Shown here piece after piece: positions 1 to 16,324 of a DNA stretch of 64,000 nucleotides. Positions within the stretch are counted from its first letter, which is position 1. Every line of letters begins with the position of its first letter. The notes beneath the pieces were generated by a model. That model did no database searches and had not been told where the DNA came from. It worked only from the letters and a program-made list of their open reading frames with translations. The position numbers and the translations under genes were made by a program. Source of the stretch: a virus; IMG/VR virus record IMGVR_UViG_3300017991_000072, positions 35,865-99,864 of that record, one strand, 5' to 3'.

Positions 1-328
1 CCGCCACCTGGCTGAAGGCCGAACAGGCCCCACAGCTTCCCTGTTGTTTGACGGAAGTCATCCACGGGGACCAGTCCCAGTAGGGAGGAAGAAGGGAGAA
101 GGCCGTGGCTGGCGGATCGTCTCCGGCTGACGTGTCATGGGGTGGTTCCGACGCCGGGAACATGGACTTCAGTTGGGCCGTTGACTTCTCTGACAGAGAT
201 GTGTGGCCCGCTGACCAGTTCAAGCCCTTGTCCTGGATCTCCTGTTGGATCGTGGTCATCTTGACCGCGTCCCCCAGAGCCCACACAGTCACCAAACACA
301 TCCACGTCCACAGGATGGACTTCTTCAT
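1..328 (-). CDS. Papain-family (C1A) cysteine protease with N-terminal signal peptide; runs off the window (3' truncated)
   Basis: Manual translation from ATG 328: MKKSILWTWMCLVTVWALG...LPPYWDWSPWMTSVKQQGSCGACSAFSQVA; matches the C1A motif LP..DW...VK.QG.CG.C.AF; GGAGG SD; ATGA overlap with the upstream stop. Not in the ORF track. Confidence 0.8.
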   Translation of the reverse strand, partial: MKKSILWTWMCLVTVWALGDAVKMTTIQQEIQDKGLNWSAGHTSLSEKSTAQLKSMFPASEPPHDTSAGDDPPATAFSLLPPYWDWSPWMTSVKQQGSCGACSAFSQVA

Positions 329-1095
329 CCGCTGTCCTCCGCTTCACCCCCTGGAACGGGGGTCTCTGGTTCGCTGGTTCCGTTCGTGTTCCCGCCTTCT
401 TCGTCCTCCCCCTCTTCTTCCTTTGGACGTTCCTTCCCGTTCAAGAGACAGTCAAAGGAAGTCCACAGCTCCGCGTTGATCTTGATGAACGCCTGTTCCT
501 CTTCCCTGGTGGTCTTCTCTTCCTCCACCAGCTCCGCCATCCTCCTGGACAGGATGGCGTTCTGGGCCGTCATGGTCTTGGCCGCGAAGGGAACACAGCC
601 GGTCAGAGTCAGCGCCAAGAGAAGGAGGCCCGTGGCCTGGGCCGCGAAGGCTGACGCCTTGGCCAGCTTCCTCTTCAGCCTTCTCTTCACCTTCGCCTCC
701 TCCTTCTTCTTCAGCTTCTTGACCATCTCCCTGGTCAAGTCTCTGTATTCGTCGGGGGTTGAAACGTAGACTTCCTCCGGCGGAGAGTGATATTCACACC
801 AGCCGTCTGACCCGTATTCTCTACAGATGTGGGTTCGTCGCTGTCTATGAATTGAACAGCGTCCCCGTTCAAGATACTGGCAAGGGATTCTGACGTAGAG
901 CGTCCAGGCTCCTTCTTCTGGTCTTCCTCCATCAGTCTCCGGAGTGAATCCAATGACTGTCTGTCCGTTTCTATACAGATACCAGAGGCCATATTCCCAT
1001 TCCTCCAAGGTGGTGGGCTTGTCCAGCTCCATTCCGAAATACTCACAACACCGTCCGCCACATTCAGGGGGACATCCACGGGGGTTCTGGGCCAT
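325..1095 (-). CDS. YkgJ-like Cys-cluster (Fe/Zn) domain protein with an internal lipobox-like segment and acidic tail
   Basis: CPPECGGRCC...CQYL...RCSIH...ICREY pattern; GGAGG SD before ATG 1095; LLLLALTLTGC mid-protein. Confidence 0.6.
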   Translation of the reverse strand: MAQNPRGCPPECGGRCCEYFGMELDKPTTLEEWEYGLWYLYRNGQTVIGFTPETDGGRPEEGAWTLYVRIPCQYLERGRCSIHRQRRTHICREYGSDGWCEYHSPPEEVYVSTPDEYRDLTREMVKKLKKKEEAKVKRRLKRKLAKASAFAAQATGLLLLALTLTGCVPFAAKTMTAQNAILSRRMAELVEEEKTTREEEQAFIKINAELWTSFDCLLNGKERPKEEEGEDEEGGNTNGTSEPETPVPGGEAEDSG

Positions 1096-1226
1096 CGTCT
1101 CCTCCTTGTCTTCGTGTAGGGATAGGTCTGGGGAAGTCTGTCAGGATCCATAATACCCCAGAACAGTCCGGACCATCAAGCCGGGTTTGTCAAGGGGGTC
1201 CGGTTTCGCGTGTGGGATCCGGGGCC

Positions 1227-1252
1227 ATGCTCCCCTCCCCTACCGTCCCGGA
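1227..1252 (+). repeat. Bipartite motif ATGC-N12-CCGTCCCGGA (copy 1 of 8)
   Basis: Other copies start at 3910, 6883, 8251, 9157 (GTGC), 10969 (GCGTCCCGGA) and 17930, with an inverted copy at 9260-9285; spacer is 12 nt in all. Confidence 0.85.
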
Positions 1253-1300
1253 CACACTATACTGTAGGCCGCGCCCACGGACGCCCCCACATCTTGGGCC

Positions 1301-1378
1301 TGAAAAAAAGTTCTCCCTGGGTCATTTTTTCTTCATTTTTCTCTTGACAAATGGACGGGGATGGTTTAGACTATAGCC
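1301..1378 (+). promoter_or_regulatory. Early promoter cassette 1
   Basis: T-rich UP tract, TTGACA 1344-1349, 17 nt, TAGACT 1367-1372, ATG 1379. Confidence 0.85.
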
Positions 1379-1672
1379 ATGATGAACGAAGAAACAAACC
1401 CCAAACCCCAGGAGGCCAAGATGATCACCCTGACAGACGAACAGATAGCCGTAGTGGCGGAAGCGGACAGCGTTCATGACTACGCCTGGTCCTACATCAC
1501 CATCAGGAAACAGACCGCGTCCTTCCAGCGGGCCTTCTACCTGGTGGAGACGATGGTTCACAAGGCTGAACACATGGAACTGGCGGAGGACCAGGTGTCA
1601 GGGCTCCAGGTGGCCACGGAATGGCTGAAACATGAGATCAAGAACGCGGGCCACCCAGTAGCCGGACTGTAG
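1379..1672 (+). CDS. Early hypothetical protein (+1 ATG 1379; SD-led ATG 1421 in frame)
   Basis: ORF after promoter, GGAGG SD. Confidence 0.75.
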   Translation: MMNEETNPKPQEAKMITLTDEQIAVVAEADSVHDYAWSYITIRKQTASFQRAFYLVETMVHKAEHMELAEDQVSGLQVATEWLKHEIKNAGHPVAGL

Positions 1673-1731
1673 AACCCCACGGGCTCCCTGGGGATCACCC
1701 AGGGAGCCCAGAACCCCAGAAGGAGGACCCC

Positions 1732-1923
1732 ATGATACGGACGAAGAAAGCCAAGAAGGTTCTGACGAAGAAGGAACAGCGCCACCTGACAGAGTCCAAC
1801 ATACACACCATGGCCGCCATGGAGCGCCAGGTGGCCTTCCTGAAGACCTACGAAGGGAACCCCACCATCTATCCCTGTTGGGAGTGTAGGGCCATAGCCC
1901 GGAAGCTTGGTCTGATGGACTGA
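1732..1923 (+). CDS. Small early protein with CxxC
   Basis: AGGAGG SD; PCWECRAIARKLGL. Confidence 0.7.
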   Translation: MIRTKKAKKVLTKKEQRHLTESNIHTMAAMERQVAFLKTYEGNPTIYPCWECRAIARKLGLMD

Positions 1924-1938
1924 CGCCCAGGACCCCCG

Positions 1939-2025
1939 TGACCCCTGGAGAAAAAAATTCTCCAGGGGTCATTTTTTCTTCATTTTTCTCTTGACTTTTC
2001 TGGCTCCCTGGGTTACAATAAGATC
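1939..2025 (+). promoter_or_regulatory. Terminator-promoter cassette 2
   Basis: 14-bp perfect stem 1939-1971 with A5 loop and T tract; TTGACT 1991-1996, 17 nt, TACAAT 2014-2019. Confidence 0.9.
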
Positions 2026-2460
2026 ATGGAAACACAGAAAACACCCCAAACCCCCAAGGAGGAGACGATGAACTGGACCAAAGAAATCAGCCAAGAGGCC
2101 GCTGACAAGGTGAAGAAGGCTGGCTACGTGGACCCCACAGCCAACCATCACCTGATCTCTGAAGCCGCCGCTGAAGCCCACACGATCCTGGGCCAGGAGA
2201 TCTTCCTGGCGAAGGACCACGCCTGTGAAGTCAGCGTCCAGATCCCCAAGACGATCACGGATGAATTCCAGGCCACCTATGACGCCTACAAGCTGATCAT
2301 GATGGAGATGGAAGCCATCCACCCGGCCAACAAACCAGAACTGACGCCCCAAGGCTATGACCGCCTGATGGCTGGCCTTCAGGAAAAGGCCGCGCCCCTT
2401 CGTTCCAAGCTTTACTCCCTGGAGATGGTCCTGGTGTCCATCGTCCAGGCCCAGATCTGA
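2026..2460 (+). CDS. Early hypothetical protein (SD-led ATG 2068)
   Basis: ORF track plus SD. Confidence 0.75.
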   Translation: METQKTPQTPKEETMNWTKEISQEAADKVKKAGYVDPTANHHLISEAAAEAHTILGQEIFLAKDHACEVSVQIPKTITDEFQATYDAYKLIMMEMEAIHPANKPELTPQGYDRLMAGLQEKAAPLRSKLYSLEMVLVSIVQAQI

Positions 2461-2527
2461 CGAACCACGGGGGAGGGACCACGGGGGTCCCTCCCCTTCC
2501 CCCAACCCCACAGAGGAGGACAAGAAG

Positions 2528-2962
2528 ATGAAAGCCACCAAGGACCAGATCAGAGGAATAGTAGGAGTCTTCCAGGACATCCTGGCCAAGGCGGAAGACA
2601 AGCTGAACACCAAGGAGATGGAGATGACAGAGCCCTACGCCCACTACACTCCCGCCAAGGACGGAGGGACCTACAGGGCTGTCTGTCTGAATGACCTTCC
2701 CAGTGAAGCCTTCCAGGCCATGGACTCCGCCACGGAGGCCGTCTCCCGCGCCAAGATGGTCATCAGGGAAGGACTCCGCTTCTGGGAATTGGGTCAGATC
2801 TCTGATGAAGACCTGGTCTTCAAGGCCGCCCAGGCCAACGTCAACCTGGCCATGGAGGCCGTGGACAAGGCCCTGGAAGCCCCCAACCCCAGGCCCAAGA
2901 CCAGGCCCAGGCCCATCAAGGCCAGGTTTGGGGAGACCAGGCCAGCGTTCCCCGTGTCATAG
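2528..2962 (+). CDS. Early hypothetical protein
   Basis: GGAGG SD after a GC hairpin. Confidence 0.7.
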   Translation: MKATKDQIRGIVGVFQDILAKAEDKLNTKEMEMTEPYAHYTPAKDGGTYRAVCLNDLPSEAFQAMDSATEAVSRAKMVIREGLRFWELGQISDEDLVFKAAQANVNLAMEAVDKALEAPNPRPKTRPRPIKARFGETRPAFPVS

Positions 2963-2970
2963 TTGACACA

Positions 2971-3057
2971 GCCCCCTGGTGAAAAAAAATTCGCCAGGGG
3001 GTCTTTTTTCTTCACTTTTCTCTTGACAAATGGGGGACCATGGTTTATAATAGAGCC
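2971..3057 (+). promoter_or_regulatory. Terminator-promoter cassette 3
   Basis: Hairpin and T tract; TTGACA 3023-3028, 17 nt, TATAAT 3046-3051. Confidence 0.9.
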
Positions 3058-3519
3058 ATGATGAAGGAAGGAAACAAACCCCAAACCCCCCAAAAGGAGG
3101 AGGACCTGATGATGACCCTTCAAGAAGCTACCGCTGGACTGATCGCTGGAACCGTGACCACGGATGACCTGAAGGTCCAAGGGTTCACGGCTGATGAACT
3201 GATCGCTGTGGTGGAGGCCATCCCGCCGTTCACAGGCTGTCCCTGTTGTTCGGATGAAGAGCCCGGCGCTGACTACGCGGACTTCAACATGTCCCTGTCC
3301 CGTCAGTTGGCCTTGGCTGACGTGAAGGTCTGTGGGTCCTGTGGAGCCATCCACGGAACCGTGGAGACCTGGGAAGCGGCCCACATGGTCTACCACCCCA
3401 CGATGGTGGCCAAGGCCACGGGGGAGGAGATCTACGTGGACCTGACGATCCGTTCAGAGAATGAACGGTTCCATGGCTGGATGGACTCCGCCACCAAGAA
3501 CCTGACCCAGGTTGGCTAG
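3058..3519 (+). CDS. Early protein with CxxC pairs (SD-led ATG 3109/3112)
   Basis: CPCC...CGSCGAIHG; SD. Confidence 0.75.
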   Translation: MMKEGNKPQTPQKEEDLMMTLQEATAGLIAGTVTTDDLKVQGFTADELIAVVEAIPPFTGCPCCSDEEPGADYADFNMSLSRQLALADVKVCGSCGAIHGTVETWEAAHMVYHPTMVAKATGEEIYVDLTIRSENERFHGWMDSATKNLTQVG

Positions 3520-3593
3520 GACCTGGGAGGAAGCCAGGGAGGGACCCGTGGGTCCCTCCCTTCTTCGTTCAACCCCAAACCCAGGAGGAGACG

Positions 3594-3800
3594 ATGACCA
3601 GAGAAGAGGCCCAACGGATGGACCCAGAGGAGGCCAAGCTGAAGGCCAAGAGACTGGCCCAGGAAGCTGATGAACTGATCTCCAAGATGGAACTGGCCCA
3701 CCCCCATTCCCAACGCTACACTGAACTGTGGAACGAACTGACAGCCGTGGAACAGGAACAGCTAGTTCTGACCTGGGCTCCAGGCTACGGAGCCTGGTGA
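3594..3800 (+). CDS. Small early hypothetical protein
   Basis: Leader ACCCCAAACCCAGGAGG before ATG. Confidence 0.7.
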   Translation: MTREEAQRMDPEEAKLKAKRLAQEADELISKMELAHPHSQRYTELWNELTAVEQEQLVLTWAPGYGAW

Positions 3801-3859
3801 CGGAATAGAGCCCAGGCCCTACCCCTGGCGAACGATCCAGGGGAGGGACCTGGGACGGG

Positions 3860-3891
3860 AGCCCCGGCGTTCAGACCGGGGCTCTTTTTTT
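3860..3891 (+). terminator. Rho-independent terminator
   Basis: AGCCCCGG...CCGGGGCT stem followed by a T run. Confidence 0.75.
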
Positions 3892-3970
3892 GTCTGGATC
3901 CCCTGGCCTATGCTCCGCCTCCGCACCGTCCCGGATGTGGTATTATCCCACCACAATGTCAAGAGAAGAG

Positions 3971-4049
3971 TGAAAAAAATTTCGTCTGGTGTCAAGATTT
4001 CTTCATTTTTCTCTTGACTTTTAGGATTGACCTGGGGTATAATAGGGCC
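3971..4049 (+). promoter_or_regulatory. Promoter cassette 4 (variant)
   Basis: TTGACT 4014-4019, 18 nt, TATAAT 4038-4043. Confidence 0.8.
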
Positions 4050-4050
4050 A

Positions 4051-4098
4051 CAGTCAAGATAGTTGACTGGTTGAATTCGGATCTTTGACAACTGAATA
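4051..4098 (+). promoter_or_regulatory. rrn-like boxB hairpin plus boxA antitermination element
   Basis: CAGTCAA-gatag-TTGACTG hairpin at 4051-4069, then GATCTTTGACAACTGAATA at 4080-4098. Confidence 0.55.
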
Positions 4099-4137
4099 AC
4101 GGACACAGAAACCCCCAAACCCCAAGGAGGGAAACCC

Positions 4138-4377
4138 ATGGACGTGTTCTCTGTTCTGATCATCGTGGCTGTGGTTCTGACCAAGGTGGAGGCCCTGGAG
4201 GACGCCCTGGAGGCTTCTGAAGCGGACTTCTTCCCCGCCCAGGTCCTTGTGGTCCTGGTGGCCAGGGACGCCCTGGTGGGAGCCCTGGCGGGCTTCCTGG
4301 AGACGGGAACGGGGCTCCAGGATCTCCTGGACGCGGCCCTGGACCTGGATGACGCCCTGGTCAAGCTGGCGAAGTAG
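4138..4377 (+). CDS. Small hydrophobic/acidic early protein
   Basis: AAGGAGG SD; ORF. Confidence 0.65.
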   Translation: MDVFSVLIIVAVVLTKVEALEDALEASEADFFPAQVLVVLVARDALVGALAGFLETGTGLQDLLDAALDLDDALVKLAK

Positions 4378-4382
4378 AAACA

Positions 4383-4468
4383 GACCCCCAGAGAAAAAAA
4401 TTCTCTGGGGGTCATTTTTTCTTCATTTTTCCCTTGACTTTTAGGAATGGGTGGTTTATAATAGGGTC
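4383..4468 (+). promoter_or_regulatory. Terminator-promoter cassette 5
   Basis: Hairpin 4383-4413; TTGACT 4434-4439, 17 nt, TATAAT 4457-4462. Confidence 0.9.
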
Positions 4469-4774
4469 ATGATGAACGAAGGAAACAAACCCCAAACCCC
4501 CAAGAAGGAGGAAACCATGAACCAGATGACAACGAAGAAGAACGCGGGAAGAGACATGGTCCGGAAGGTGAAGGCGGAACAGATGTCCTTTGTGACGGAG
4601 GACCAGTTGGCCGTTATCGCGGAGGACGATGAAACCAGGATGACCCCCATCCTTGTCCGCTGTGGGAATGGACGCTTCACGTGTCCCGCCCAGAACGCGG
4701 CCTGGTTCATTGACATCATCACCAAGGAAGGGACGGACTACGTCAGGGACGCCTCCATCTACTCCAGCTACTAG
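4469..4774 (+). CDS. Early hypothetical protein (SD-led ATG 4517)
   Basis: ORF plus SD. Confidence 0.75.
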   Translation: MMNEGNKPQTPKKEETMNQMTTKKNAGRDMVRKVKAEQMSFVTEDQLAVIAEDDETRMTPILVRCGNGRFTCPAQNAAWFIDIITKEGTDYVRDASIYSSY

Positions 4775-4788
4775 CCTGAACCCCTCCA

Positions 4789-4874
4789 GCCCCCCAGAGA
4801 AAAAAATTCTCTGGGGGGCCTTTTTTCTTCACTTTTCTCTTGACTTTCTTGACGGGGTGGGCTATAATAAGATC
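4789..4874 (+). promoter_or_regulatory. Terminator-promoter cassette 6
   Basis: Hairpin; TTGACT 4840-4845, 17 nt, TATAAT 4863-4868. Confidence 0.9.
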
Positions 4875-5327
4875 ATGGAAACAGCGAACAAACCCCAAAC
4901 CCCCAAACCCCAGGAGGACAGAATGTCAGTCACACAGTTCAGCGCGGAAGCCGTTTCCCAGATGGCCCACAGCATAGCCGCCCACGCCCGTCTTGATGAA
5001 GAGTTGGCGGAGATCATCCTGGAGTCCAAGGCGGCCCACCACGCTGGCCGCGTGGAGTTCAACCTGGACACGGATGACGTTTCCTTCAAGCTGGTCCACT
5101 ACATGAGGCTGTCCAACCTGGTGGCCTACTCCATCCAATACCAGGAGCCCATGGTTCCCGTCTACACCATTGATGACTACTACGGGGAACCCCTGGTGGC
5201 CAAGGAGCTGGCGGAGGAAATTGACCACTGGATCTACAACGTCCAGACCAACGCGGGGACCGCCCTGGTGGACCCGCTCTGGTTTGAACTGTTCCAGGCT
5301 GTCAGGGACCACCTGGCCGCGAAGTAG
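4875..5327 (+). CDS. Early hypothetical protein (SD-led ATG 4923)
   Basis: ORF plus SD. Confidence 0.75.
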   Translation: METANKPQTPKPQEDRMSVTQFSAEAVSQMAHSIAAHARLDEELAEIILESKAAHHAGRVEFNLDTDDVSFKLVHYMRLSNLVAYSIQYQEPMVPVYTIDDYYGEPLVAKELAEEIDHWIYNVQTNAGTALVDPLWFELFQAVRDHLAAK

Positions 5328-5340
5328 CCCACGGCCTCCA

Positions 5341-5426
5341 GACCCCCAGAGAAAAAAATTCTCTGGGGGTCATTTTTTCTTCATTTTTCTCTTGACTTTT
5401 CCCCGGGGATGGGTTACAATAAGATC
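5341..5426 (+). promoter_or_regulatory. Terminator-promoter cassette 7
   Basis: Hairpin 5341-5371; TTGACT 5392-5397, 17 nt, TACAAT 5415-5420. Confidence 0.9.
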
Positions 5427-5699
5427 ATGGAAACAGGAAATCAACCCCAAACCCCGAAGGAGCCCAAGATGAAGATGAACCCCAACGGATCAGTCAGTTT
5501 CAGCTATGAAGAGATCGTGGCGGCGGCGGAAGAGACCAAGAAGGCGGAAGCGGCCCGCGCCAACGCGCCCATGATGGCCGTCAGCTATGAAACCCCCGTA
5601 GGGACCTTCAAGGACTGGATCAAGGCGGCGGAGCGCGTGGAGGCTTTGGACATGGACCCCGTGGAGGTCATCAAGGTAGTCAGAACCCCTATCAGCTAA
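5427..5699 (+). CDS. Early hypothetical protein (SD-led ATG 5469)
   Basis: ORF plus SD. Confidence 0.75.
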   Translation: METGNQPQTPKEPKMKMNPNGSVSFSYEEIVAAAEETKKAEAARANAPMMAVSYETPVGTFKDWIKAAERVEALDMDPVEVIKVVRTPIS

Positions 5700-5766
5700 G
5701 GACAGGAACCACGCCCCCCCAGGATCCCCTGGGGGGCCAACCCCAACCCCAACGAAGGAGGACACG

Positions 5767-6165
5767 ATGAACAGACAAGCCAAGATCCCCCAGGAGATGG
5801 CCACCTACCTGGTGGACGCGGAGGACAAAGGCTGGACCGGTGGCCAGGTGACCAGGTGGGTCCGGAACTGGATGAAGGACCTAGTCTGGGATGACAAGGA
5901 CCCCCTGGGGGAGTCCGTGGCCGTGACCGTCCCCTGTTCCCTGGTGGACCAATACGGGAAGCTGATGGCCAAGGAGGACGAAGTCAGGACCTTGATGGAG
6001 ACCAGAGCCCAGACCCTTGGCCTGGTGTCCTGTGACCCCAGGTCTGAAGAGTACAGGGAGACCAGGAGGAAACACCTGAACCTAGTCAACGCCCTGGACA
6101 TGGTCAGGGAGTCCAGGAGGAACCTGGAAGACGCCATGACCTGGGTCCTGTTGGCCCAACTGTAG
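5767..6165 (+). CDS. Early hypothetical protein
   Basis: AAGGAGG SD. Confidence 0.7.
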   Translation: MNRQAKIPQEMATYLVDAEDKGWTGGQVTRWVRNWMKDLVWDDKDPLGESVAVTVPCSLVDQYGKLMAKEDEVRTLMETRAQTLGLVSCDPRSEEYRETRRKHLNLVNALDMVRESRRNLEDAMTWVLLAQL

Positions 6166-6216
6166 ACGAACCCAACGCGGCCCCCTGGGGAGACCTGGGG
6201 GGCCAAGGAGGACCCC

Positions 6217-6522
6217 ATGGAAGGACAAGAACCCAAGATGGTCTCCGTCATGGTGGCGGAGAAGCTTCTACAGGATTATGACACGGCCTTGATGGGAGCC
6301 AGGAACATGGAGGGACGCCTATTGAACGCTGAACAGTGTCTTCTCCAGTCCGTCCTGGACTGTGACCAGGAAGCCTATGAAGAGGCCCTGGCCCAGAGGG
6401 ACAGGGTCCAGGCTTCTCTGGACCTGGCCAAGAACCAGGCGGCGGCCCTGTCCGTCACGATAGCCAAGAAGGCCCTTCAAGACTGGATGACCCCAGGGAC
6501 TCCAGTCTTCCCAGAGGATTGA
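6217..6522 (+). CDS. Early hypothetical protein
   Basis: AAGGAGG SD. Confidence 0.7.
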   Translation: MEGQEPKMVSVMVAEKLLQDYDTALMGARNMEGRLLNAEQCLLQSVLDCDQEAYEEALAQRDRVQASLDLAKNQAAALSVTIAKKALQDWMTPGTPVFPED

Positions 6523-6583
6523 ACCACGGGTCCTCCCGTGGGTTTGGGGTGGGGCTCCCCCAGGGGTGGGGGAGCCCCTTTCT
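6522..6583 (+). terminator. Anti-leader element plus terminator (copy A, 3'UTR)
   Basis: GTCCTCCCGTGGGTTTGGGGT 6530-6550, then 12-bp stem with GGGG loop 6551-6578 and T tract. Confidence 0.75.
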
Positions 6584-6584
6584 A

Positions 6585-6613
6585 TTGACTTCAGGCGGAC
6601 CATGGTCTACACT
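6585..6613 (+). promoter_or_regulatory. Sigma70 promoter for a putative sRNA
   Basis: TTGACT 6585-6590, 17 nt, TACACT 6608-6613; no SD-led ORF downstream. Confidence 0.75.
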
Positions 6614-6619
6614 GAAGCC

Positions 6620-6702
6620 TGATCCACAGGGAACGGCGGGGCTTCCCCGTCCTCCTTGGGGTTTGGGGTAGGGGTCCAGGAGGGGTCCTGGACCCCTCTT
6701 TA
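6620..6702 (+). ncRNA. Putative ~80-nt sRNA antisense to the shared early-gene leader/SD (copy B)
   Basis: GTCCTCCTTGGGGTTTGGGGT 6649-6669 is the reverse complement of ACCCCAAACCCCAAGGAGGAC; 12-bp terminator stem 6670-6697. Confidence 0.65.
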
Positions 6703-6742
6703 TATTGTGGTTCTTCTTGAACAGCTCCCCCACATGTGGTAT
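6696..6742. promoter_or_regulatory. NrdR-box-like pair (32 bp apart)
   Basis: CTCTTTATATTGTGG at 6696 and CCCCACATGTGGTAT at 6728. Confidence 0.5.
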
Positions 6743-6843
6743 GGTGGAACCTGCTAGGGCTGACTTGGTGTCCGTACCAGCGCCGGGTCACTCTGTTTCC
6801 TCCTTTGGGCTCCCCACGCGCCACGGGGAGCCCTTCCCTTCTA

Positions 6844-6859
6844 TGTTCCACGTGAAACC
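6844..6859. promoter_or_regulatory. parS-like site
   Basis: TGTTCCACGTGAAACC, 15/16 match to TGTTNCACGTGAAACA. Confidence 0.65.
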
Positions 6860-7000
6860 CTGACTCCCTGGACCCCCGGGCCATGCTCCGGCCGGAGACC
6901 GTCCCGGATGTGGTATTCATCCACCACAACGTCAAGTCCCCACTTGACACGCCCCCCTTCCTCCTCCCCCCTGGTTATGCTCCCCCCAGGAAATCCGGGA

Positions 7001-7047
7001 CACCACATGTGGTATACCCACGGCCACGGACCCCCTACATTTTGTGG
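7001..7047. promoter_or_regulatory. NrdR-box-like pair (32 bp apart)
   Basis: CACCACATGTGGTAT at 7001 and CCCTACATTTTGTGG at 7033. Confidence 0.55.
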
Positions 7048-7079
7048 TGTCATATAGCGAATTTTTCTACACTGAACCC

Positions 7080-7109
7080 TTGACAACAGGGGGTCCCCTG
7101 GTGTATATT
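7080..7109 (+). promoter_or_regulatory. Promoter 8
   Basis: TTGACA 7080-7085, 18 nt, TATATT 7104-7109. Confidence 0.75.
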
Positions 7110-7126
7110 AGGGGTAGATAGTGAGA

Positions 7127-7552
7127 ATGAAACGGACCCCAGAACCCCAAACCAAGGAGGACAGGATGAACGCAAGAACCAACGATGACTTCAGGAAGGA
7201 AGGAACCAGGAAGGCCACGCTGGCGTTCCTTTCCGCCCTGACAGAACAGGAGGAAAGCGGAGAACCCCCGGCCATGTTCATGATCTGTCAACAGAAGAAC
7301 CCCATCACGGGACGGAGGAATGAAGTCAGGTTGACGGCCGGTGTTCAGGCCATGGGAGCCATAGCGGCCGGTCACGTCCTGAAAGCCGTTCATGACTTTG
7401 ACACCTTCACAGAGGATAATGACCCCTACGGGGAACATGACTTTGGGATCGTCAGGATGGAAGGGGAAACCCTGAACTGGAAGATTGATGACTACCAGGG
7501 CTATGATGGGATTGAATTGGTCCTGACCATCATGACGGCCATGGAATACTAG
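7127..7552 (+). CDS. DUF3768-family protein (SD-led ATG 7166)
   Basis: FDTFTEDNDPYGEHDFG...WKIDDY...VLTIMTAMEY signature. Confidence 0.8.
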   Translation: MKRTPEPQTKEDRMNARTNDDFRKEGTRKATLAFLSALTEQEESGEPPAMFMICQQKNPITGRRNEVRLTAGVQAMGAIAAGHVLKAVHDFDTFTEDNDPYGEHDFGIVRMEGETLNWKIDDYQGYDGIELVLTIMTAMEY

Positions 7553-7613
7553 AAACCCCAGGGAGCCCGGCCACGGCCGGGCTCCCACCACCCCCCAAAC
7601 CAAGGAGGACAGA

Positions 7614-7877
7614 ATGGACCCCATCACGAACCCAAGACCCACCACCCACCAATGGAAGGAAGGGGACAGGGTAGCCTTTTCTAAAGCCTTCCTCCGCAAC
7701 ACTGGCCAGTGTGACTATGAAACGGCCAGAGGCCGGGGGACCATCATCAGCGTGGCCCCCGTGGGGGACCTGACCATAGCGTCTATCAGATGGGACGGGA
7801 TAGGTCTGGTCACTAACGTCAACGTGTTGAACCTGTCCCTGGTCACCAGGGACGGGGTAGTTCAGGACAGGGACTAG
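7614..7877 (+). CDS. Small early protein (possible SH3-like fold)
   Basis: SD; WKEGDRVAF...GTIISV...IRW. Confidence 0.65.
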   Translation: MDPITNPRPTTHQWKEGDRVAFSKAFLRNTGQCDYETARGRGTIISVAPVGDLTIASIRWDGIGLVTNVNVLNLSLVTRDGVVQDRD

Positions 7878-7937
7878 GAAGTCACCAGGGAGCCCTGGCG
7901 CTGGCCGGGGCTCCCACCCCCACCCAAGGAGGACAGG

Positions 7938-8177
7938 ATGGATCTGGAACGCTACAGGGTCTTCACAGCCCAGAAATTCATGGCCATGACCACGGGGGAA
8001 CGCCAGAGGACAAAGCCCACCATGATGTTCAGCCGGGAATACCTGGCCCTGGCCCTGGCGCTGGCCTCTGAAAAGGTCATCATCTATGACGCCCAGGAAG
8101 ACCTGGCGTGGCATTGTGGGGACCTGGTCACGAAGGCGGGATGGTACGATGGGAGCGGACAGCTAGTCAACCCGTAG
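7938..8177 (+). CDS. Early hypothetical protein
   Basis: AAGGAGG SD. Confidence 0.65.
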   Translation: MDLERYRVFTAQKFMAMTTGERQRTKPTMMFSREYLALALALASEKVIIYDAQEDLAWHCGDLVTKAGWYDGSGQLVNP

Positions 8178-8351
8178 CCCTTCACCGGGGACCTGGTGAA
8201 GGGGTCCCCTTGGTTAGCCGGTCCCGGGGAAACCCGGGGCCGGTCTTTTTATGCTCCCCTCTGGCCCCGTCCCGGATTGTGGTATACTGTATCCACAATG
8301 TCAAGCCCTGGCTTGACGGGCCGTCTGCTAATCCACGAAAAGCCGGGACGG

Positions 8352-8395
8352 CCCCACATGTGGTAGGCCCCGTCCACCACCCCTATATTTTGTGG
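8352..8395. promoter_or_regulatory. NrdR-box-like pair (29 bp apart)
   Basis: CCCCACATGTGGTAG at 8352 and CCCTATATTTTGTGG at 8381. Confidence 0.5.
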
Positions 8396-8407
8396 TGTCC
8401 GTGGGCG

Positions 8408-8457
8408 TCTTTTTCTTCACTTTTCTCTTGACAAAAGGGGAACGCCGGGCGTATAAT
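8408..8457 (+). promoter_or_regulatory. Promoter cassette 9
   Basis: TTGACA 8428-8433, 18 nt, TATAAT 8452-8457; GCTGAAC-N5-GTTCAGC hairpin just after the TSS. Confidence 0.85.
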
Positions 8458-8518
8458 AGACCTGTAAGCTGAACAAAGGGTTCAGCGAAACCCCAACCCC
8501 CAACCAAGGGAGGACAGA

Positions 8519-8716
8519 ATGTTGGTAGCGTGTTACAAGACCAAGAAGGCTTTGAAGGAAGCCGTGGGACAGGCTCTTCTATATGAAGAGACTTCCTTGT
8601 TCGGGGAGGAATACCGCCCGGACGGGACGTTCCCAGTGGTAGGCCCCGGGGCCTATGAGCGTAAATGGTACGCGGAAGTTACCATGAAGGGAGGGAAGAT
8701 CCACAAGGTCAAGTAG
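8519..8716 (+). CDS. Small phage hypothetical protein
   Basis: SD; YKTKKALKEAVGQ.L.Y.ETSLFG.EY...KWYAEVTM. Confidence 0.75.
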   Translation: MLVACYKTKKALKEAVGQALLYEETSLFGEEYRPDGTFPVVGPGAYERKWYAEVTMKGGKIHKVK

Positions 8717-8775
8717 GAACCTGAACCGGCCCGGGGCTCCGGCCCCGGGCCATTCTTCCAACCAAGGGAGGAACC

Positions 8776-9060
8776 ATGAACACACAAGAGACCCTAGAAT
8801 TCACTGGACACCAGATGGCCCGGGCCAATACGGTCCTGTCAAGCCTTGACGGAGCTGGCCCTATGTCCGTCTGTAAAGCCGCCGCCGTGGCCCAGAAGGC
8901 CAACCAAATAGCGGAAAGCCTACCAGCCCTTGACAAGCTGGCCGGACACCTTGAAAGCCATCCTGATGACCCCGTGGCCCTTCTGGCCGTTCAAGCCTAT
9001 ACCGTGGCCGTGGGCGTCCACCTTGACCTTCTGGAACTGACCCTTCAAATGACCCTATAG
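8776..9060 (+). CDS. Early hypothetical protein
   Basis: GGAGG SD. Confidence 0.65.
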   Translation: MNTQETLEFTGHQMARANTVLSSLDGAGPMSVCKAAAVAQKANQIAESLPALDKLAGHLESHPDDPVALLAVQAYTVAVGVHLDLLELTLQMTL

Positions 9061-9324
9061 CCTCCCCCCAGGGGGGAGGAATTCCCCCTTGGTTGGCCCC
9101 GGTCCCTTCTGGGACCGGGGCCTTTCTTTTGTCAACCCCAGACTTGACATAGTGGTGTGCAAATGTCATTTTCCGTCCCGGACGTTGACCGTTTCCCAGG
9201 GCTCCCAGAGCGGAGCGGAGCGGAGCGGGTCCCCGTAGGGGACCACGGCCCCCGTCCCATCCGGGACGGGGGCCGGGAACCGCATAGAGAGAAGAGACCG
9301 GAACCGGACCCGGCCGGACCCACC

Positions 9325-9396
9325 TGAAAAAAAATTCGCGGGAGGACGTTTTTTCTTCACTTTTCCCTTGACTTTCGTTCTGGGATGGTTTAGAAT
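9325..9396 (+). promoter_or_regulatory. Promoter cassette 10
   Basis: TTGACT 9368-9373, 17 nt, TAGAAT 9391-9396. Confidence 0.85.
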
Positions 9397-9405
9397 AGGG
9401 GTGTA

Positions 9406-10362
9406 ATGAGGAAACGAAACACACCCCAAACCCCGAAGGAGGCCAAGATGGCAACACAGAGCGGACAGGACAAGGTTTTCCAGATCTTCACAGACCAGAT
9501 CATGGACATGTTGGAAGAGGGGACGGTCCCCTGGCGTCAACCTTGGAAGGGCGGGAAGATCCCCATGTCCTTCCAGACCAAGCGGCCCTACCGTGGGATG
9601 AACGTCTGGTTCCTGAACAGCGTGGCCATTCATCGCGGCTACACATCCAACTGGTGGGTGTCCCTGAAGTCAGTGAAGAAGGCCAAGGGCTGGATCAAGG
9701 ACGATGAATTCAAGAAGTCAGTGACCGTGATCTTCTGTAGGCCCAAGCGGTACGAAGTGGAGACGGACGAAGTGGACGAACAGGGCCAGCCGGTCAAGGA
9801 AGAGCGGATGTCCTTCATCTACTTCTACCACACGGTATGGAACATGGACCAGGTGGAAGGGATGACGGCCCCTGACGCGGACCAGGACGCGGAGGAGCGG
9901 ACCCCCAACCAGATCCTTGAAGAGGCCCAGGCCATCATTGACGGCTACCAGAACGGCCCAGAGATCAGCCACGGCGGGACCAGGGCTTTCTATCGTCCCT
10001 CTGATGACTCCGTGACGGTCCCAGAGATGGAACTGTTCCAGGACAGCGAGAACTACTACCACGTGATGTATCATGAACTGGCACACTCCACGGGTCACGG
10101 TTCCCGCCTTGGGCGGAAGGGAGTCATGGACCTGACCATGTTTGGATCCCATGACTACTCCAAGGAGGAACTGGTGGCGGAGATGGGAGCGGGCTTCCTG
10201 GGAGCCCTGGTGGGACTGACCCCCAGGACCATTGACAACACGGCGGCCTACATCCAGTCCTGGCTGAAGGCCCTGAACGATGACAAGCGGCTCCTGGTCT
10301 ACGCGGCCAGCAAAGGCCAGGCGGCGGCGGAACACATCCTGGGCGTGACCTGGGAAGGATAA
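9406..10362 (+). CDS. ardC: ArdC-family antirestriction ssDNA-binding/zincin protein (SD-led ATG 9448)
   Basis: GTVPWRQPW, PYRGMN, AFYRPSDD, HELAHSTGH..RL.R, YSKEELVAE, AAYIQSWL motifs. Confidence 0.92.
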   Translation: MRKRNTPQTPKEAKMATQSGQDKVFQIFTDQIMDMLEEGTVPWRQPWKGGKIPMSFQTKRPYRGMNVWFLNSVAIHRGYTSNWWVSLKSVKKAKGWIKDDEFKKSVTVIFCRPKRYEVETDEVDEQGQPVKEERMSFIYFYHTVWNMDQVEGMTAPDADQDAEERTPNQILEEAQAIIDGYQNGPEISHGGTRAFYRPSDDSVTVPEMELFQDSENYYHVMYHELAHSTGHGSRLGRKGVMDLTMFGSHDYSKEELVAEMGAGFLGALVGLTPRTIDNTAAYIQSWLKALNDDKRLLVYAASKGQAAAEHILGVTWEG

Positions 10363-10437
10363 CAGGGAGGAAGCCTGGGAGTCCCACAGTGGGGCTCCCA
10401 GGCCCTTCAAACCCCAAACCAGAAGGAGGACAGAACG

Positions 10438-10911
10438 ATGGAACAGACAGACTACACAGCGGACAGAGAACTGGCGGTCAAGGCCCTGGAACAGATGGAC
10501 TACATCCACCTGGAACGCGGACAGGTGGCGGCCCTGGTGGACACCTACCGGGTCATCACCACCCATAACCCTGGCGCGGTCCCAGGCCATGAAGAGGAAC
10601 TAGGGACCCTGGCCGGGCTCCTGGTCATGAGCGTAGGAACTGGCGTCAAGCTGATCCCAGAGGACGGACCCCCCAACGTCCGGGTGGGAGTCCCCAGGCT
10701 CCTGGTGGAAGCCATCAAGGACATCAACATCCAGAGGGACAAACTGGCGGCCTACAAGGAGGAACACAAGGACGGAGGAGGACCAATAGACCCCAAGTCC
10801 ATGGAAGTCCTGGAGGCCCAACAGGCTACCCACAGGGCGGCCCTTTCCACGGCCCTGGTCAACGTCATCATCACGGACTTGGCTGGAATGGCGGACGCTG
10901 GAAGCTACTAG
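10438..10911 (+). CDS. Early hypothetical protein
   Basis: Shared leader plus SD. Confidence 0.7.
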   Translation: MEQTDYTADRELAVKALEQMDYIHLERGQVAALVDTYRVITTHNPGAVPGHEEELGTLAGLLVMSVGTGVKLIPEDGPPNVRVGVPRLLVEAIKDINIQRDKLAAYKEEHKDGGGPIDPKSMEVLEAQQATHRAALSTALVNVIITDLAGMADAGSY

Positions 10912-11052
10912 ACTGACCCTCCCCCACAGAGCCCCGGCCCGGTTCGTCCGGTCCGGGGCTCTTCTTTTATGCGGGCCGGGACTAGCGTCCCGGATATACG
11001 CCATTTCCCACGGTCCCCATCACGTGGTAGACTATGGATGAAAGGAGATCCC

Positions 11053-11355
11053 ATGACCTACACTCTATCCCAGGCGGGGACGGCCTACGCTGAAGCGGCG
11101 GCCACGTGGGCCAGGGCTATGGAAGCGGAGGAGGCGGTCAGACAAGAAGGCCCTGACCTGAAGGTTGACAAGTTCCTCCACGTGACGGCCTTGTCCACAG
11201 TGATCCGCCAGGCTATGAACGGCCTGTCCCAGGCTGTCATGATCTTCATCTGGCGAAACAACGAAGGGAACCACGCGGTCCTGGAAGCGGCCATGGCGGA
11301 GACTATCCGCGTGACGGCGGACGCCAACGCCCTTATGGACTCCTACGGATACTGA
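11053..11355 (+). CDS. Early hypothetical protein
   Basis: AAGGAG SD; upstream TAGACT -10 at 11028-11033. Confidence 0.65.
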   Translation: MTYTLSQAGTAYAEAAATWARAMEAEEAVRQEGPDLKVDKFLHVTALSTVIRQAMNGLSQAVMIFIWRNNEGNHAVLEAAMAETIRVTADANALMDSYGY

Positions 11356-11503
11356 ACCCCCTGGACCCCTGGGCCACCAATGACTGTTTATTAACCCTGA
11401 ACTGTCATTCTGTTGTTACCGGTTATCAGGCCCAGGGGTCTTTTCTTTCCCCCACGCGGGCGCGGGCGGGCGCGTGGGCGCGTATACGCGGGCGCGGGGC
11501 TCC

Positions 11504-11581
11504 TGAAAAAAGTTCTCCCAGGGCGTTTTTTTCTTCACTTTTCTCTTGACATCCGTGGACGGGTCCCCTATAATAAGGACC
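11504..11581 (+). promoter_or_regulatory. Promoter cassette 11
   Basis: TTGACA 11546-11551, 17 nt, TATAAT 11569-11574. Confidence 0.9.
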
Positions 11582-11965
11582 ATGGACACAGCGACAAACC
11601 CCAAACCCCAAACCACGGAGGACAACATGTCCACACTGAACGCCCTTGGAACCCTTCTCTACAGCCTCCCCGTTCCCACCCGTCACGCCTACACCATCAC
11701 CATCTGTGACCAATACCAGGACACAGAGCCTACCACCTGTGTGGTCAACGCGGAGACCCAGGGCGCGGCCCTGGCCAAGGCTGTGGAGGTCTACTCCACA
11801 GAATTCTACGGCCACGCGGTCACCCTGGACCCCCAGGTCCTTCATGACGCTGTCACCGTCATCTTCCATCCTGACGGCGGCGTGAACCCCGTGGGGTTCT
11901 TCGCCAGTGACCCCCAACCCATCCGCCTTCAGCGCCTTGGGGACCCTGTCCCCTTGTCCGCGTAA
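11582..11965 (+). CDS. Early hypothetical protein (SD-led ATG 11627)
   Basis: ORF plus SD. Confidence 0.7.
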   Translation: MDTATNPKPQTTEDNMSTLNALGTLLYSLPVPTRHAYTITICDQYQDTEPTTCVVNAETQGAALAKAVEVYSTEFYGHAVTLDPQVLHDAVTVIFHPDGGVNPVGFFASDPQPIRLQRLGDPVPLSA

Positions 11966-12031
11966 GCGGACCCCCTGGGGGGTGGGAATTCTCCCACCCC
12001 CCGGCTGGAACCCCAAACCCAGGAGGACATC

Positions 12032-12232
12032 ATGGACCAAGTCAAGAAGAGCCTGACCAAGAAAGCCCTGAAGGCCAAGCTGAACCAAGCCAGGGAAGAG
12101 CTGACCTACCTGGAGGACTTCCTGGCGGGACCCTGTTGTGTGTCCCACGCGGAGATTGACGCGGCCGGGGATGACACCTACAGGCTTCAGAAGGAGATCA
12201 GGGAGCTGAAGGAGGCCCTGGCGGCCCTGTGA
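12032..12232 (+). CDS. Small coiled-coil early protein
   Basis: Shared leader plus SD. Confidence 0.7.
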   Translation: MDQVKKSLTKKALKAKLNQAREELTYLEDFLAGPCCVSHAEIDAAGDDTYRLQKEIRELKEALAAL

Positions 12233-12253
12233 TCTTTTTTTCGTCAGGCGGCG

Positions 12254-12307
12254 TTTTTTCTTCACTTTTCTCTTGACAAAGCCTGAAGGATGGTTTACAC
12301 TTACACC
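12254..12307 (+). promoter_or_regulatory. Promoter cassette 12
   Basis: TTGACA 12273-12278, 17 nt, TACACT 12296-12301. Confidence 0.85.
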
Positions 12308-12955
12308 ATGGACACAGACCGCAAACCCCAGACCCAGGAGGACACGATGAACGAAGATCACATCACCCAAGAGGCCACGCGGCGGCTGGAAGCCCTTCAC
12401 CCCTACCTGACCAGGGAGATCAAGCTGGCTCCCCCGTCTCCCCCAGAGAAGACGGCTGAAGAGTACAGGGAAGAAGCGGCCCGTCACGCGGCGGAGCGCC
12501 TACGGTCCCAACAGGAGTCAGACACGGACGGGTTCCTGTCCCAGTGGGCCAGCGGCCTGAACAGTTCCCTGGCGTCCAGGCGGGCGGAGATCAAGGAGAA
12601 CGGCGGGAACTGGGAGTTCTGGGGACTCTACCGTAGGGCGGACGGGAAGCGGATCAGGGCCAAGATGATAGACGGGAAGTATGGCCTCTGTTGGGCCATC
12701 TGTGACGAACATTCCACCTTCACGGGTCAGTTCTTCTCCGTGGACGGGACGGGCTCCAAGAGGACCAAGCTGTGGAAGGCTGGCCTGGAAGAGCGGCGTG
12801 AAATGGCCCCGGCTTGGGCCAAGATGGACGGGAAGGGAACGGGCCTGTCAGGTCAGGCTTGGGTGTCCACCTACAGGATAGACGGCGGCTACCCCTTGGA
12901 CGCGGTCAACCTGGACTCCCCCGTGGAGGACCCTGACCCCACGCCGGACCCATAG
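12308..12955 (+). CDS. Early hypothetical protein (SD-led ATG 12347)
   Basis: ORF plus SD; SDTDGFLSQWA motif. Confidence 0.75.
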   Translation: MDTDRKPQTQEDTMNEDHITQEATRRLEALHPYLTREIKLAPPSPPEKTAEEYREEAARHAAERLRSQQESDTDGFLSQWASGLNSSLASRRAEIKENGGNWEFWGLYRRADGKRIRAKMIDGKYGLCWAICDEHSTFTGQFFSVDGTGSKRTKLWKAGLEERREMAPAWAKMDGKGTGLSGQAWVSTYRIDGGYPLDAVNLDSPVEDPDPTPDP

Positions 12956-13177
12956 CCTTCCCCCAAGAAGGCCAAGAGGACGGAAGCGGAACTACGGCGG
13001 GACCTTTCCGCCATCATGAGGGGTCACAGAGTATGTCAGGACTGTGGCCAGGTCAGGCCCACGGCTGAAGTCCACGTCCCTGGACGTGGGATGGCTAGGG
13101 TCTGTCAGGACTGCTATGACGTGGCTGTCTATGAACTGACGGCCTAACCCCAACCCCCAGGACAGGAGGAAGGAACG

Positions 13178-14479
13178 ATGGACAAGGAGAAGATCAAGGA
13201 GCTGTGTGACAAGGTGGAACACCTGACTGAATGGGCTGAAATAGGCGCGGCCTGGACAAGGGACCAGGCCACGTCAGAGTCCACGGAGAAGGACGCCAGG
13301 GTCAACCTGGAACTGGCCCACCAGGAGGAGAAGGAACTGTTGGACTTCCTGACGGGCCTGATCAAGGAGGAGGACACCAGGTCCCCGGAGATGGTGTCCC
13401 TGGATTGGATGTTTGACGCGGCGGAGGAACACCTTCTGGACGAAGACGGAGAAGTCACCTGTGAAGTGGAGGAACTACGGACCCACTACCAGGTAGTCCT
13501 GAACAACTTGAAGGAGCTGGCCCTTCTTCGTGAACGCTACCAGTCCTTGAAGATCAGGGCCTTCTCCGCCATGTATGGAACCTTCATTCCCGCCAGGGAG
13601 GACGGGCTGAACCACTACTTCCAGTCCATCACGGCGGAGCGGGAGGCCAAGGAAATGACGGAGGCCCTGGACGCCCTGGAACACCTGAACAAGGAGGCCA
13701 GGGAAGGGAACATAGCTGTCTACGATGGGGAAGAGAACTGTGAAGCCCTTCTTCAGGACATCAAGGACGCCTACAGGATCCTGTGGGACTTCATCACGGG
13801 CTCCAACACCAGGAACATTCAGAACCTTCCCAGGACGGTCACAGGACGGTTCACGGACTCCCCCAATTTCCAGGAGGTCCCCAAGACGGAGTCCACGGCG
13901 CGGCCCATCGTGAAGGCCCCTGGTCCCTCCCCCTACGCCCAGATCTTCCAGGTCATTGGGAACGTGGTTCCCCAGGAAGCGGCGGAAGCTGTGGACCTGG
14001 CCATCCGTCAGTATGACGGATCCTTCAGCGGGACTCCCCTGAAGGACCTAGTGATGAAGACCTGGGGAGCCCTGGACGGGGACGCCAGGATGGCCCATGA
14101 CAGGCTGTCAGGCCACATCCAGACCAGCGCGGACCCAGACATCAGGGAGGACAGGCTGAAGGACCTGGTGACCCTGGTGGGCTCCCTGAACGCTGAAGAG
14201 AAGGCCAGCTACTCCGTGGCTGTGGACATGTTCCTGAAGGCCAGGATCATCTCCACGTTTGAACGGGCCTTTGACATCAACCATACGGAAGCGGCGGAGA
14301 TCTTTGACAGGGTCCAGGACGGGGAGCCCTTGGAGGCCATCCTGGTGGACATCCTGACCGTGGCGGAACGCCATGACCCCAACCAGTTCAGGGCGGGGAT
14401 CTTGGCCATCCTGAAGAAGGGACATGGGATCTCCAACGCCCAGAACAAGATTGGGGGTGATCCCAGTGATAAAGAGTGA
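13178..14479 (+). CDS. Large helical hypothetical protein
   Basis: 433-aa ORF, SD. Confidence 0.75.
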   Translation: MDKEKIKELCDKVEHLTEWAEIGAAWTRDQATSESTEKDARVNLELAHQEEKELLDFLTGLIKEEDTRSPEMVSLDWMFDAAEEHLLDEDGEVTCEVEELRTHYQVVLNNLKELALLRERYQSLKIRAFSAMYGTFIPAREDGLNHYFQSITAEREAKEMTEALDALEHLNKEAREGNIAVYDGEENCEALLQDIKDAYRILWDFITGSNTRNIQNLPRTVTGRFTDSPNFQEVPKTESTARPIVKAPGPSPYAQIFQVIGNVVPQEAAEAVDLAIRQYDGSFSGTPLKDLVMKTWGALDGDARMAHDRLSGHIQTSADPDIREDRLKDLVTLVGSLNAEEKASYSVAVDMFLKARIISTFERAFDINHTEAAEIFDRVQDGEPLEAILVDILTVAERHDPNQFRAGILAILKKGHGISNAQNKIGGDPSDKE

Positions 14480-15398
14480 CATCCTGGACATGGTGGACAA
14501 GATGGTCCAGGCGGGCCAGCTACACACGGAAGTCCTGGAGGCCCTGGGACACCTGGCGGACGAACACACGGACCACATCCTGAAGGAGAAGCTGGACCAC
14601 CAGGCGGCGGAACACGCCCGGCGCTGTGACCAGTTTGTTGACCAGATCGTTCAGACAGATCAGCGGTTCATGGACTTCCTGAAGATGGCCTACGCCATGG
14701 ACGCGGACACGGCCAAGGAGACCCTGAAGCTGATCAAGCGGGGACTGTTCCCAAGCCAGATCCTACGGGACGCCCTGTCTGAAGGAGAACGCCAGAAGGC
14801 GGCCCTGGAACACGCGGGCCTGGGGGACGCCATGAAGGCGGCCGGGGATGTCTTCAGGGAGCTGGAAAGTGAGAAGCCCAAGCTGAAGGTCACCCTTCCT
14901 GACGGGTCCACGCGGGAGTCCGTCCCAGACAAACCCTGGGACCCTGACGGCTCCAGGCCAAACCACCAGCCCAAGTCTCCGTTCCCTCTGGTGGTGGATG
15001 TCAAGGTGGACCCAGAGAACGAAGAACACAGGGACTATGTGATGGGCCTGATCTGTGAACATCTCCCTGACGGCCAGCTACAGGTCAGATGTGACCTGGA
15101 CCCGGACACGGAGGACCTGGCCTTCATCTGGAGGATTGAATGGTCCTTCCAGGAGAAGCGGACGGACGGGGAGATCCCTGTGACCCGTGGCGTGGCCCTG
15201 GAAATAGGCCACAAGGAAGGGACCCTGGTCAAGGATCTCCCTGGGGTAGCCATGGGACTGGCCAGGACCCTGAAGGCCAAGAGGAAGCGGGCCTATGGAG
15301 ACATAGAAGCCCCCTGTCTGGAATGTGAAGGAGCCTACGCGGACGGAAACCCATGTCAAGACTGTGACGAAGGAGAAGGAAATGGCCATCAAGGATAG
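14466..15398 (+). CDS. Hypothetical protein with C-terminal CxxC...CxxC
   Basis: ORF; start uncertain (GTG 14466 or ATG 14490). Confidence 0.7.
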   Translation: MIKSDILDMVDKMVQAGQLHTEVLEALGHLADEHTDHILKEKLDHQAAEHARRCDQFVDQIVQTDQRFMDFLKMAYAMDADTAKETLKLIKRGLFPSQILRDALSEGERQKAALEHAGLGDAMKAAGDVFRELESEKPKLKVTLPDGSTRESVPDKPWDPDGSRPNHQPKSPFPLVVDVKVDPENEEHRDYVMGLICEHLPDGQLQVRCDLDPDTEDLAFIWRIEWSFQEKRTDGEIPVTRGVALEIGHKEGTLVKDLPGVAMGLARTLKAKRKRAYGDIEAPCLECEGAYADGNPCQDCDEGEGNGHQG

Positions 15399-15606: not shown

Positions 15607-15615
15607 GAGCCCAAG

Positions 15616-16246: not shown

Positions 16247-16261
16247 AGAGTCTACATGAAG

Positions 16262-16324
16262 CCCACAGGTCCTCCTGTGGGGTTTGGGGTGGGGAGCCCG
16301 GAGGGGTCCGGGCTCCCCTTTTCT
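16262..16324 (+). terminator. Anti-leader element plus terminator (copy C, 3'UTR)
   Basis: GTCCTCCTGTGGGGTTTGGGGT 16269-16290; 12-bp stem with GGGG loop 16291-16318; T tract. Confidence 0.75.

Follow-up and report, generated by a model that had tools for sequence, protein, structure and literature searches.

Introduction

In Escherichia coli, some mRNAs with a Shine-Dalgarno (SD)-led start carry a further AUG at their 5' end or within 1 nt of it, which recruits 70S ribosomes, is translated and can influence expression of what follows (PMC4965119). This class of 5'-terminal upstream AUGs (5'-uAUGs; Beck, Fleming and Janssen 2016, PMC4965119, with a follow-up on ptrB in 2017) is the closest described case to the system analysed here, an array of viral early-gene cassettes in which an ATG at or near the predicted transcript start stands in frame with a second, SD-led start further downstream. 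The array lies in a 64,000-nucleotide (nt) stretch of DNA, hereafter the window, that corresponds to bases 35865-99864 of the 99,864-base IMG/VR virus record IMGVR_UViG_3300017991_000072, which belongs to an uncultured phage and is rated complete. As in the E. coli mRNAs, the leader, the SD sequence and the downstream start lie on the same transcript, and in the phage an AUG is predicted to occupy its 5' end. The E. coli 5'-uAUGs, however, open short separate open reading frames (ORFs) that either end ahead of the gene or run into it in another frame, and they are scattered single cases, with no shown conservation (PMC4965119). Unlike these, every phage AUG of this kind joins its gene in frame, leaving no separate short upstream ORF, and the arrangement recurs in a whole family of early promoters that provides comparative evidence of frame selection.

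In Mycobacterium tuberculosis, transcripts that start directly on an AUG or GUG give rise to isoforms with a longer or shorter N-terminus (Shell 2015, PMC4633059; Smith 2022, PMC9094748), and such isoform ORFs have largely been regarded as mis-annotation or translational noise (PMC9094748). The phage cassettes resemble them in that the two forms share a stop codon and a second start is present, with the 5' AUG here predicted rather than mapped, but differ in that both starts are conserved, the second carries a strong SD sequence, and the layout is modular and repeated. Two in-frame starts on one gene are likewise known from phage dual-start motifs, such as the lambda S105/S107 holin/antiholin pair and the in-frame internal starts of endolysins (PMC9430671). 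There, both starts are internal, SD-dependent and gene-specific and the resulting forms are functionally distinct, whereas in the cassettes described here the starts are 13-17 codons apart, the first lies at the predicted mRNA end, the genes encode unrelated, soluble-looking proteins including ArdC, and the added residues show no sequence constraint. The classical leaderless phage mRNA, lambda cI made from P_RM, begins on the A of its AUG, as is predicted here, but cI has a single start codon that is leaderless or leadered according to the promoter, and not two starts on one transcript.

We found no description in the open-access literature of a conserved in-frame 5' AUG combined with an SD-led start across a phage early regulon. 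Previous examples of an AUG at the 5' terminus of an SD-led mRNA come from a handful of E. coli genes and, in mycobacteria, from genome-wide maps that are noisy. To the question whether such starts are selected or accidental, the phage cassettes contribute comparative evidence, in which the frame of the 5' AUG appears to be maintained by compensating indels beside a strong SD-led start on the same transcript.

Results

The array is defined by a word consisting of a terminator, a T-rich stretch and a -35 element, which occurs in 11 copies on the + strand between window positions 1300 and 12350 and nowhere in the rest of the genome. Every copy carries a near-consensus sigma-70-type promoter with a spacer of 17-18 nt, and each promoter serves one to three small, unrelated genes. 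A consensus scan returned 19 promoter-like sites compared to 2.5 expected. A preliminary description of the window had listed ten ATGs upstream of SD-led starts, and all ten are present and in frame with GGAG-led ATGs, at 1379 and 1421 (42 nt apart), 2026 and 2068 (42), 3058 and 3109 (51), 4469 and 4517 (48), 4875 and 4923 (48), 5427 and 5469 (42), 11582 and 11627 (45), 12308 and 12347 (39), 9406 and 9448 (42), and 7127 and 7166 (39). The gaps given there, and the N-terminal peptides quoted, were likewise correct. Eight of these ATGs had been placed at the predicted transcript start (+1), and the consensus scan agreed: seven (1379, 2026, 3058, 4469, 4875, 5427 and 12308) start 6 nt past the -10 hexamer, and that at 11582 starts 7 nt past it. 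Of the two described as lying slightly further, the ATG at 7127 is 17 nt past the -10 and not at +1, and the ATG at 9406, in the cassette of the ArdC gene, is 9 nt past it, giving a predicted leader of ~3 nt.

Start sites preferred by bacterial RNA polymerase lie at the 7th-8th nt past the -10 and have a purine at +1 preceded by a pyrimidine at -1. Across the window and its relatives, the 5' ATG is predicted to sit at this expected start of a sigma-70-type promoter, at the 7th nt past the -10 in 21 of 25 leaders, and it is preceded by C or T in 22. The relatives were found by one metagenome scan with the promoter word, and their contigs come from one family of sediment samples. They comprise near-identical copies of the window array (L026/L072, L036 and L005), an intermediate lineage (L086 and L137) and a distant lineage (L112 and L004/L140), and so add two lineages to that of the window; the ArdC protein is 70% identical to the window protein in one relative and 65% identical in the other. 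With identical leaders removed, the set comprised 25 different leaders, nine from the window and 16 from the relatives, in which the ATG lies 6 nt (21 leaders), 7 nt (one) or 9 nt (three) past the -10.

In all 25, the 5' ATG shares the reading frame of the SD-led start, and the leaders measure 39, 42, 45, 48 or 51 nt. When the leaders were split at a shared motif of the C4-A3-C4 type, the upstream part measured 17-21 nt and the downstream part 21-31 nt, in twelve different splits, and the phases of the two parts were (0,0) in 19 leaders, (2,1) in five and (1,2) in one, with zero out-of-frame pairs. This length covariation is like that used to infer RNA pairing, but in codon units. When the leaders were joined in a minimum spanning tree, indels occurred on 16 of the 24 links, many of them of 1, 2 or 4 nt, and every one of the ten net length changes was a multiple of 3; counting only these ten changes as independent, the neutral expectation is ~(1/3)^10, or 2 in 100,000. 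To assess the leader itself, the distance from motif to start was taken in 20 control leaders that lack a 5' ATG, drawn from internal cistrons and ATG-less cassettes. These distances fell into the three classes modulo 3 as 8, 6 and 6, and the leader therefore has no built-in 3-nt periodicity, which rules out an intrinsic periodicity as the source of the pattern.

The same behaviour was seen between orthologues. Leaders of the ArdC gene measure 42, 48 and 48 nt across the lineages, with three different motif splits and all in frame, and those of the gene that follows the ATG at 3058 measure 51, 51 and 48 nt. In L112, the orthologue of the gene at 7166 is preceded by an ATG properly at +1, with a gap of 51 nt, while the orthologous cassette in L086 lacks the upstream ATG altogether. 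Selection on the frame, as suggested in the preliminary description, is thus borne out by compensatory length changes and by the relatives, among which random leader frames, the outcome named there as speaking against it, were not seen.

We also considered what the two other phases would produce. In the window cassettes, a hypothetical upstream ORF in the +2 phase would extend 6-85 codons into the gene. In the +1 phase, the situation is different: seven of the ten first genes (at 1421, 2068, 3109, 4517, 5469, 7166 and 12347) begin with ATGA, so that a TGA overlaps the start codon in that frame, and a leader length of 1 modulo 3 would give a short ORF ending on the overlapping TGA in these seven of ten window cassettes. 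Such an ATGA overlap is present in E. coli rhaB (PMC4965119). This coupled layout is usually tolerated, yet it was never seen in the leaders, and its complete absence suggests that the fusion as such has been selected for, beyond the avoidance of damage to the gene.

The starts themselves vary little. The first is AUG in 25/25 leaders, and the second is ATG in 24 and GTG in one (L112 at 6209). A GGAG(G) lies 6 nt before the second start in 23 leaders and 9 nt before it in two, with varying spacer bases, and the same SD signal is used by the internal cistrons. Since the frame is kept through compensated indels while the SD-led start is invariant, both starts appear to be under selection. Leaderless initiation in E. 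coli depends on an AUG; CA repeats immediately downstream enhance it, whereas extra sequence on the 5' side and structure inhibit it (PMC9031893). The enhancers known from E. coli are present here: besides the AUG, the downstream sequence is A/C-rich and folding is weak, at -1 to -7.5 kcal/mol for the first 60 nt of nine window transcripts.

Between the two ATGs, the leaders consist of 46% A, 34% C, 20% G and 0.4% T. Only 4 of the 1020 nt outside the ATGs are T, and two of the three frames would thus be free of stops in any case. The statement in the preliminary description that the two starts are joined in frame and without a stop is therefore correct in both parts, but only the frame carries information, since a nearly T-free leader lacks stop codons trivially, and we set the absence of stops aside as evidence. 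Base composition likewise accounts for the similar, hydrophilic and Pro-rich peptides, since without T there are neither stop codons nor hydrophobic codons. The common core of the leaders is a nucleotide motif, the C4-A3-C4 type followed by GGAGG. It also stands before internal cistrons that have neither a promoter nor an upstream ATG, for example those starting at 2528, 3594, 7614, 10438, 12032 and 13178, and among the ATG-bearing leaders it is read in three frames, giving different residues. Between orthologous leaders, in turn, many amino acids are changed and whole codons are gained or lost. The constraint therefore lies at the level of the RNA and not of the peptide.

Discussion

We consider dual initiation, with a leaderless-type start at the 5' AUG and an SD-led one at the second, to be the best-supported reading of these cassettes and a probable one; it was already proposed in the preliminary description, and it is favoured by the conserved frame, the position of the ATG relative to the promoter and the conserved SD-led start. 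Each early promoter would be built so that transcription begins on the A of the AUG, and, as the frame conservation suggests, this 5'-terminal AUG would be used as a leaderless-type 70S start. The ribosome would then read through the T-free, A/C-rich and almost unstructured leader, over the SD sequence and the second AUG, into the gene, yielding a long form that consists of the protein and a hydrophilic extension of 13-17 residues. Ribosomes would also start at the strong GGAGG-N5-AUG, as on the internal cistrons, yielding a short form. The frame would be kept so that every ribosome loading at the 5' end makes a useful protein, and the extension, which has no conserved amino-acid sequence, would be a tolerated by-product of the shared RNA motif and not a tag. 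Likely benefits would be a second, early and SD-independent ribosome entry and a cover for the mRNA 5' end; insensitivity to an SD-masking small RNA, discussed below, would be a possible further one.

Several observations weigh against dual initiation. The cassettes are recombining paralogues, so that 25 leaders do not amount to 25 independent trials, and the sample consists of three phage lineages from one environment. Neither the three ArdC cassettes nor the cassette at 7127 have an ATG at the predicted +1, and five cassettes have no 5' ATG at all, so the feature is not essential. In addition, the strong SD sequence 40-50 nt downstream may out-compete the 5' AUG, which would make the long form minor.

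Other explanations account for part of the evidence. The 5' AUG could be a mere loading or standby site, at which ribosomes bind before sliding to the SD-led AUG without translating. Sliding from a 5' AUG has been proposed for E. coli ptrB (PMC4965119), and the 39-51 nt between the AUGs would probably let ribosomes occupy the two sites simultaneously; frame should not matter to a site used purely for loading, though, which is difficult to square with 25/25 leaders in frame through compensated indels and with non-periodic controls, and we regard it as quite improbable. The genes could, conversely, be plainly leaderless, with the 5' AUG as their sole start and the downstream GGAGG and AUG as an unused remnant of the internal-cistron module. 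The frame would then be conserved trivially, and the second start in L112 at 6209 is a GTG. Nevertheless, the second codon is a start codon in 25/25 leaders, the SD spacing is fixed while the spacer and the neighbouring codons vary, the internal cistrons have no start signal other than this SD layout, and the Pfam N-terminal domain of ArdC begins at residue 9 of the short form, so that a sole 5' start seems very unlikely to us.

The two remaining explanations concern what the leader encodes, if anything. A common tag, as the preliminary description had envisaged, with a function such as targeting, degradation or the binding of a partner, would explain why the extensions are alike in composition (Pro, Gln, Thr, Lys and Glu) on unrelated early proteins. 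This likeness, however, stems from the nucleotide motif, which is untranslated before the internal cistrons and read in three frames elsewhere; with 0.4% T only hydrophilic codons are available, and orthologous leaders carry many non-synonymous changes and whole-codon differences, which makes a tag highly improbable. We give least credence to the notion that the ATG is never translated, the pattern being inherited from one ancestral cassette or imposed by a need of the DNA or of transcription, for instance a CATG site or a requirement on the initial transcribed sequence. The cassettes are indeed paralogous, recombining copies, but inheritance from one copy does not predict five lengths, twelve upstream/downstream splits and three phase classes, in which indels that are not multiples of 3 are compensated, beside controls that are non-periodic. 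To our knowledge, no non-translational process counts in threes. A methylation or restriction site at the start point was rejected as well, since the genome shows no avoidance of CATG and nothing special about it (488 observed, 369 expected), and such a site would leave the frame unexplained.

Dual initiation may also bear on regulation. In addition to the cassettes, the array contains a promoter followed by a candidate small RNA (6585-6701, + strand) that includes a stretch antisense to the shared leader and the SD sequence. Its predicted duplex with leader nt ~17-45 has an energy of -35 to -40 kcal/mol. The predicted duplexes mask the SD sequence and reach the second AUG, but never the 5' AUG, and leave the next 12-22 nt free as well. 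An anti-leader RNA is conserved in the most distant relative found (L112:8841-8950, + strand), with its own promoter, antisense stretch and terminator hairpin. Pairing in silico is compatible with the idea of an isoform switch but is not evidence for one. A regulon-wide switch, in which the anti-leader RNAs would shut off the SD-led start of ~20 early cistrons while promoter-proximal cistrons persist as the long form by SD-independent 70S initiation, is a speculative and rather unlikely model. If true, one RNA would split the early regulon into a silenced and a persistent class.

Irrespective of regulation, the arrangement has a consequence for annotation: gene callers choose either start, and ArdC is accordingly listed with 304 amino acids (aa) here and 326 aa in a relative. 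Short synthetic cassettes make parallel leaderless and SD-led initiation on one mRNA, and the reason for it, testable, and the leader, a compact and T-free part, could serve as a dual-mode translation element.

Additional features of the window

The cassettes with an upstream ATG all lie on the + strand. The first spans 1344-1423, with its -35 at 1344, its -10 ending at 1372, the 5' ATG at 1379 and motif phase (2,1). It is followed by cassettes at 1991-2070 (ATG 2026, phase (0,0)), 3023-3111 (ATG 3058, in a tandem ATGATG), 4434-4519 (ATG 4469, also tandem), 4840-4925 (ATG 4875) and 5392-5471 (ATG 5427), each with its promoter. Further downstream lie the ArdC cassette (9368-9450, ATG 9406) and two more promoter-bearing cassettes at 11546-11629 (ATG 11582, phase (2,1)) and 12273-12349 (ATG 12308). 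The cassette at 7080-7168, in which the ATG at 7127 is in frame with that at 7166 without being at +1, is a doubtful member.

Two cassettes on the same strand lack a 5' ATG and served as controls. That at 4014-4140 has a long, T-containing leader with an ACG at 4099 that resembles a mutated ATG; as the preliminary description pointed out, this ACG is in frame. It precedes the ATG at 4138 by 39 nt, and its flank resembles the 5' end of the leaders at 11582 and 12308. Inside the long leader, an inverted repeat of 15 nt (two 5-nt arms flanking a 5-nt centre) at 4053-4067 includes a -35-like word and is adjoined by a divergent promoter-like word at 3958-3977 on the - strand; the repeat may be an operator. 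In the other control, at 8428-8521, the leader opens with a stem-loop (7-bp stem) at the predicted transcript start (8458-8490). This design is kept in L086 (3923-3960), and the stem-loop may be an alternative protection of the mRNA 5' end.

The relatives also provided an example of exchange between cassettes. At L086:648-730, a recombinant combines a promoter and leader 5' half like those of the window cassette at 4840 with an SD sequence and gene like those of the cassette at 5392, and the junction is the C/A motif. The shared motif seems to serve as a site of crossover at which promoters are exchanged between genes.

Other fragments of the phage group encode DNA polymerases that are 74-91% identical to that of the window, and the contigs found through this protein carry no cassettes. 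Two of the related contigs, G001 (28,916 nt) and G002 (16,066 nt), end exactly at the first cassette, and G003-G005 are without the array; repeated cassettes break short-read assemblies, and the array is under-represented in databases as a result. The leader motif is missing from the ArdC relatives in IMG/VR, whose identity does not exceed 37%, and a looser promoter word in viral contigs gave no further relatives among the matches listed. A scan of genome contigs with the promoter word gave single chance matches only, with no prophage relative and no clue to the host, and a protein atlas search with the helicase returned viral clusters only and indicated no host.

Beyond the array, the genes of the window include a family A DNA polymerase, a DnaB-type helicase, a methylase and the ArdC-like protein. 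No Rfam families were found in window positions 1-17000, and a search with a 433-aa protein encoded 3' of the array gave no matches. The phage encodes a single tRNA-Glu, with anticodon TTC, at 31073-31145 on the - strand. Finally, several 4-nt palindromes are strongly depleted across the whole genome (G000) relative to the expectation from base composition, namely TGCA (4 observed, 369 expected), TCGA (8, 369), TTAA (14, 205), GTAC (64, 369) and CTAG (87, 369), while GATC, CATG and GGCC are enriched. This depletion resembles restriction-site avoidance and could hint at the restriction systems of the host.

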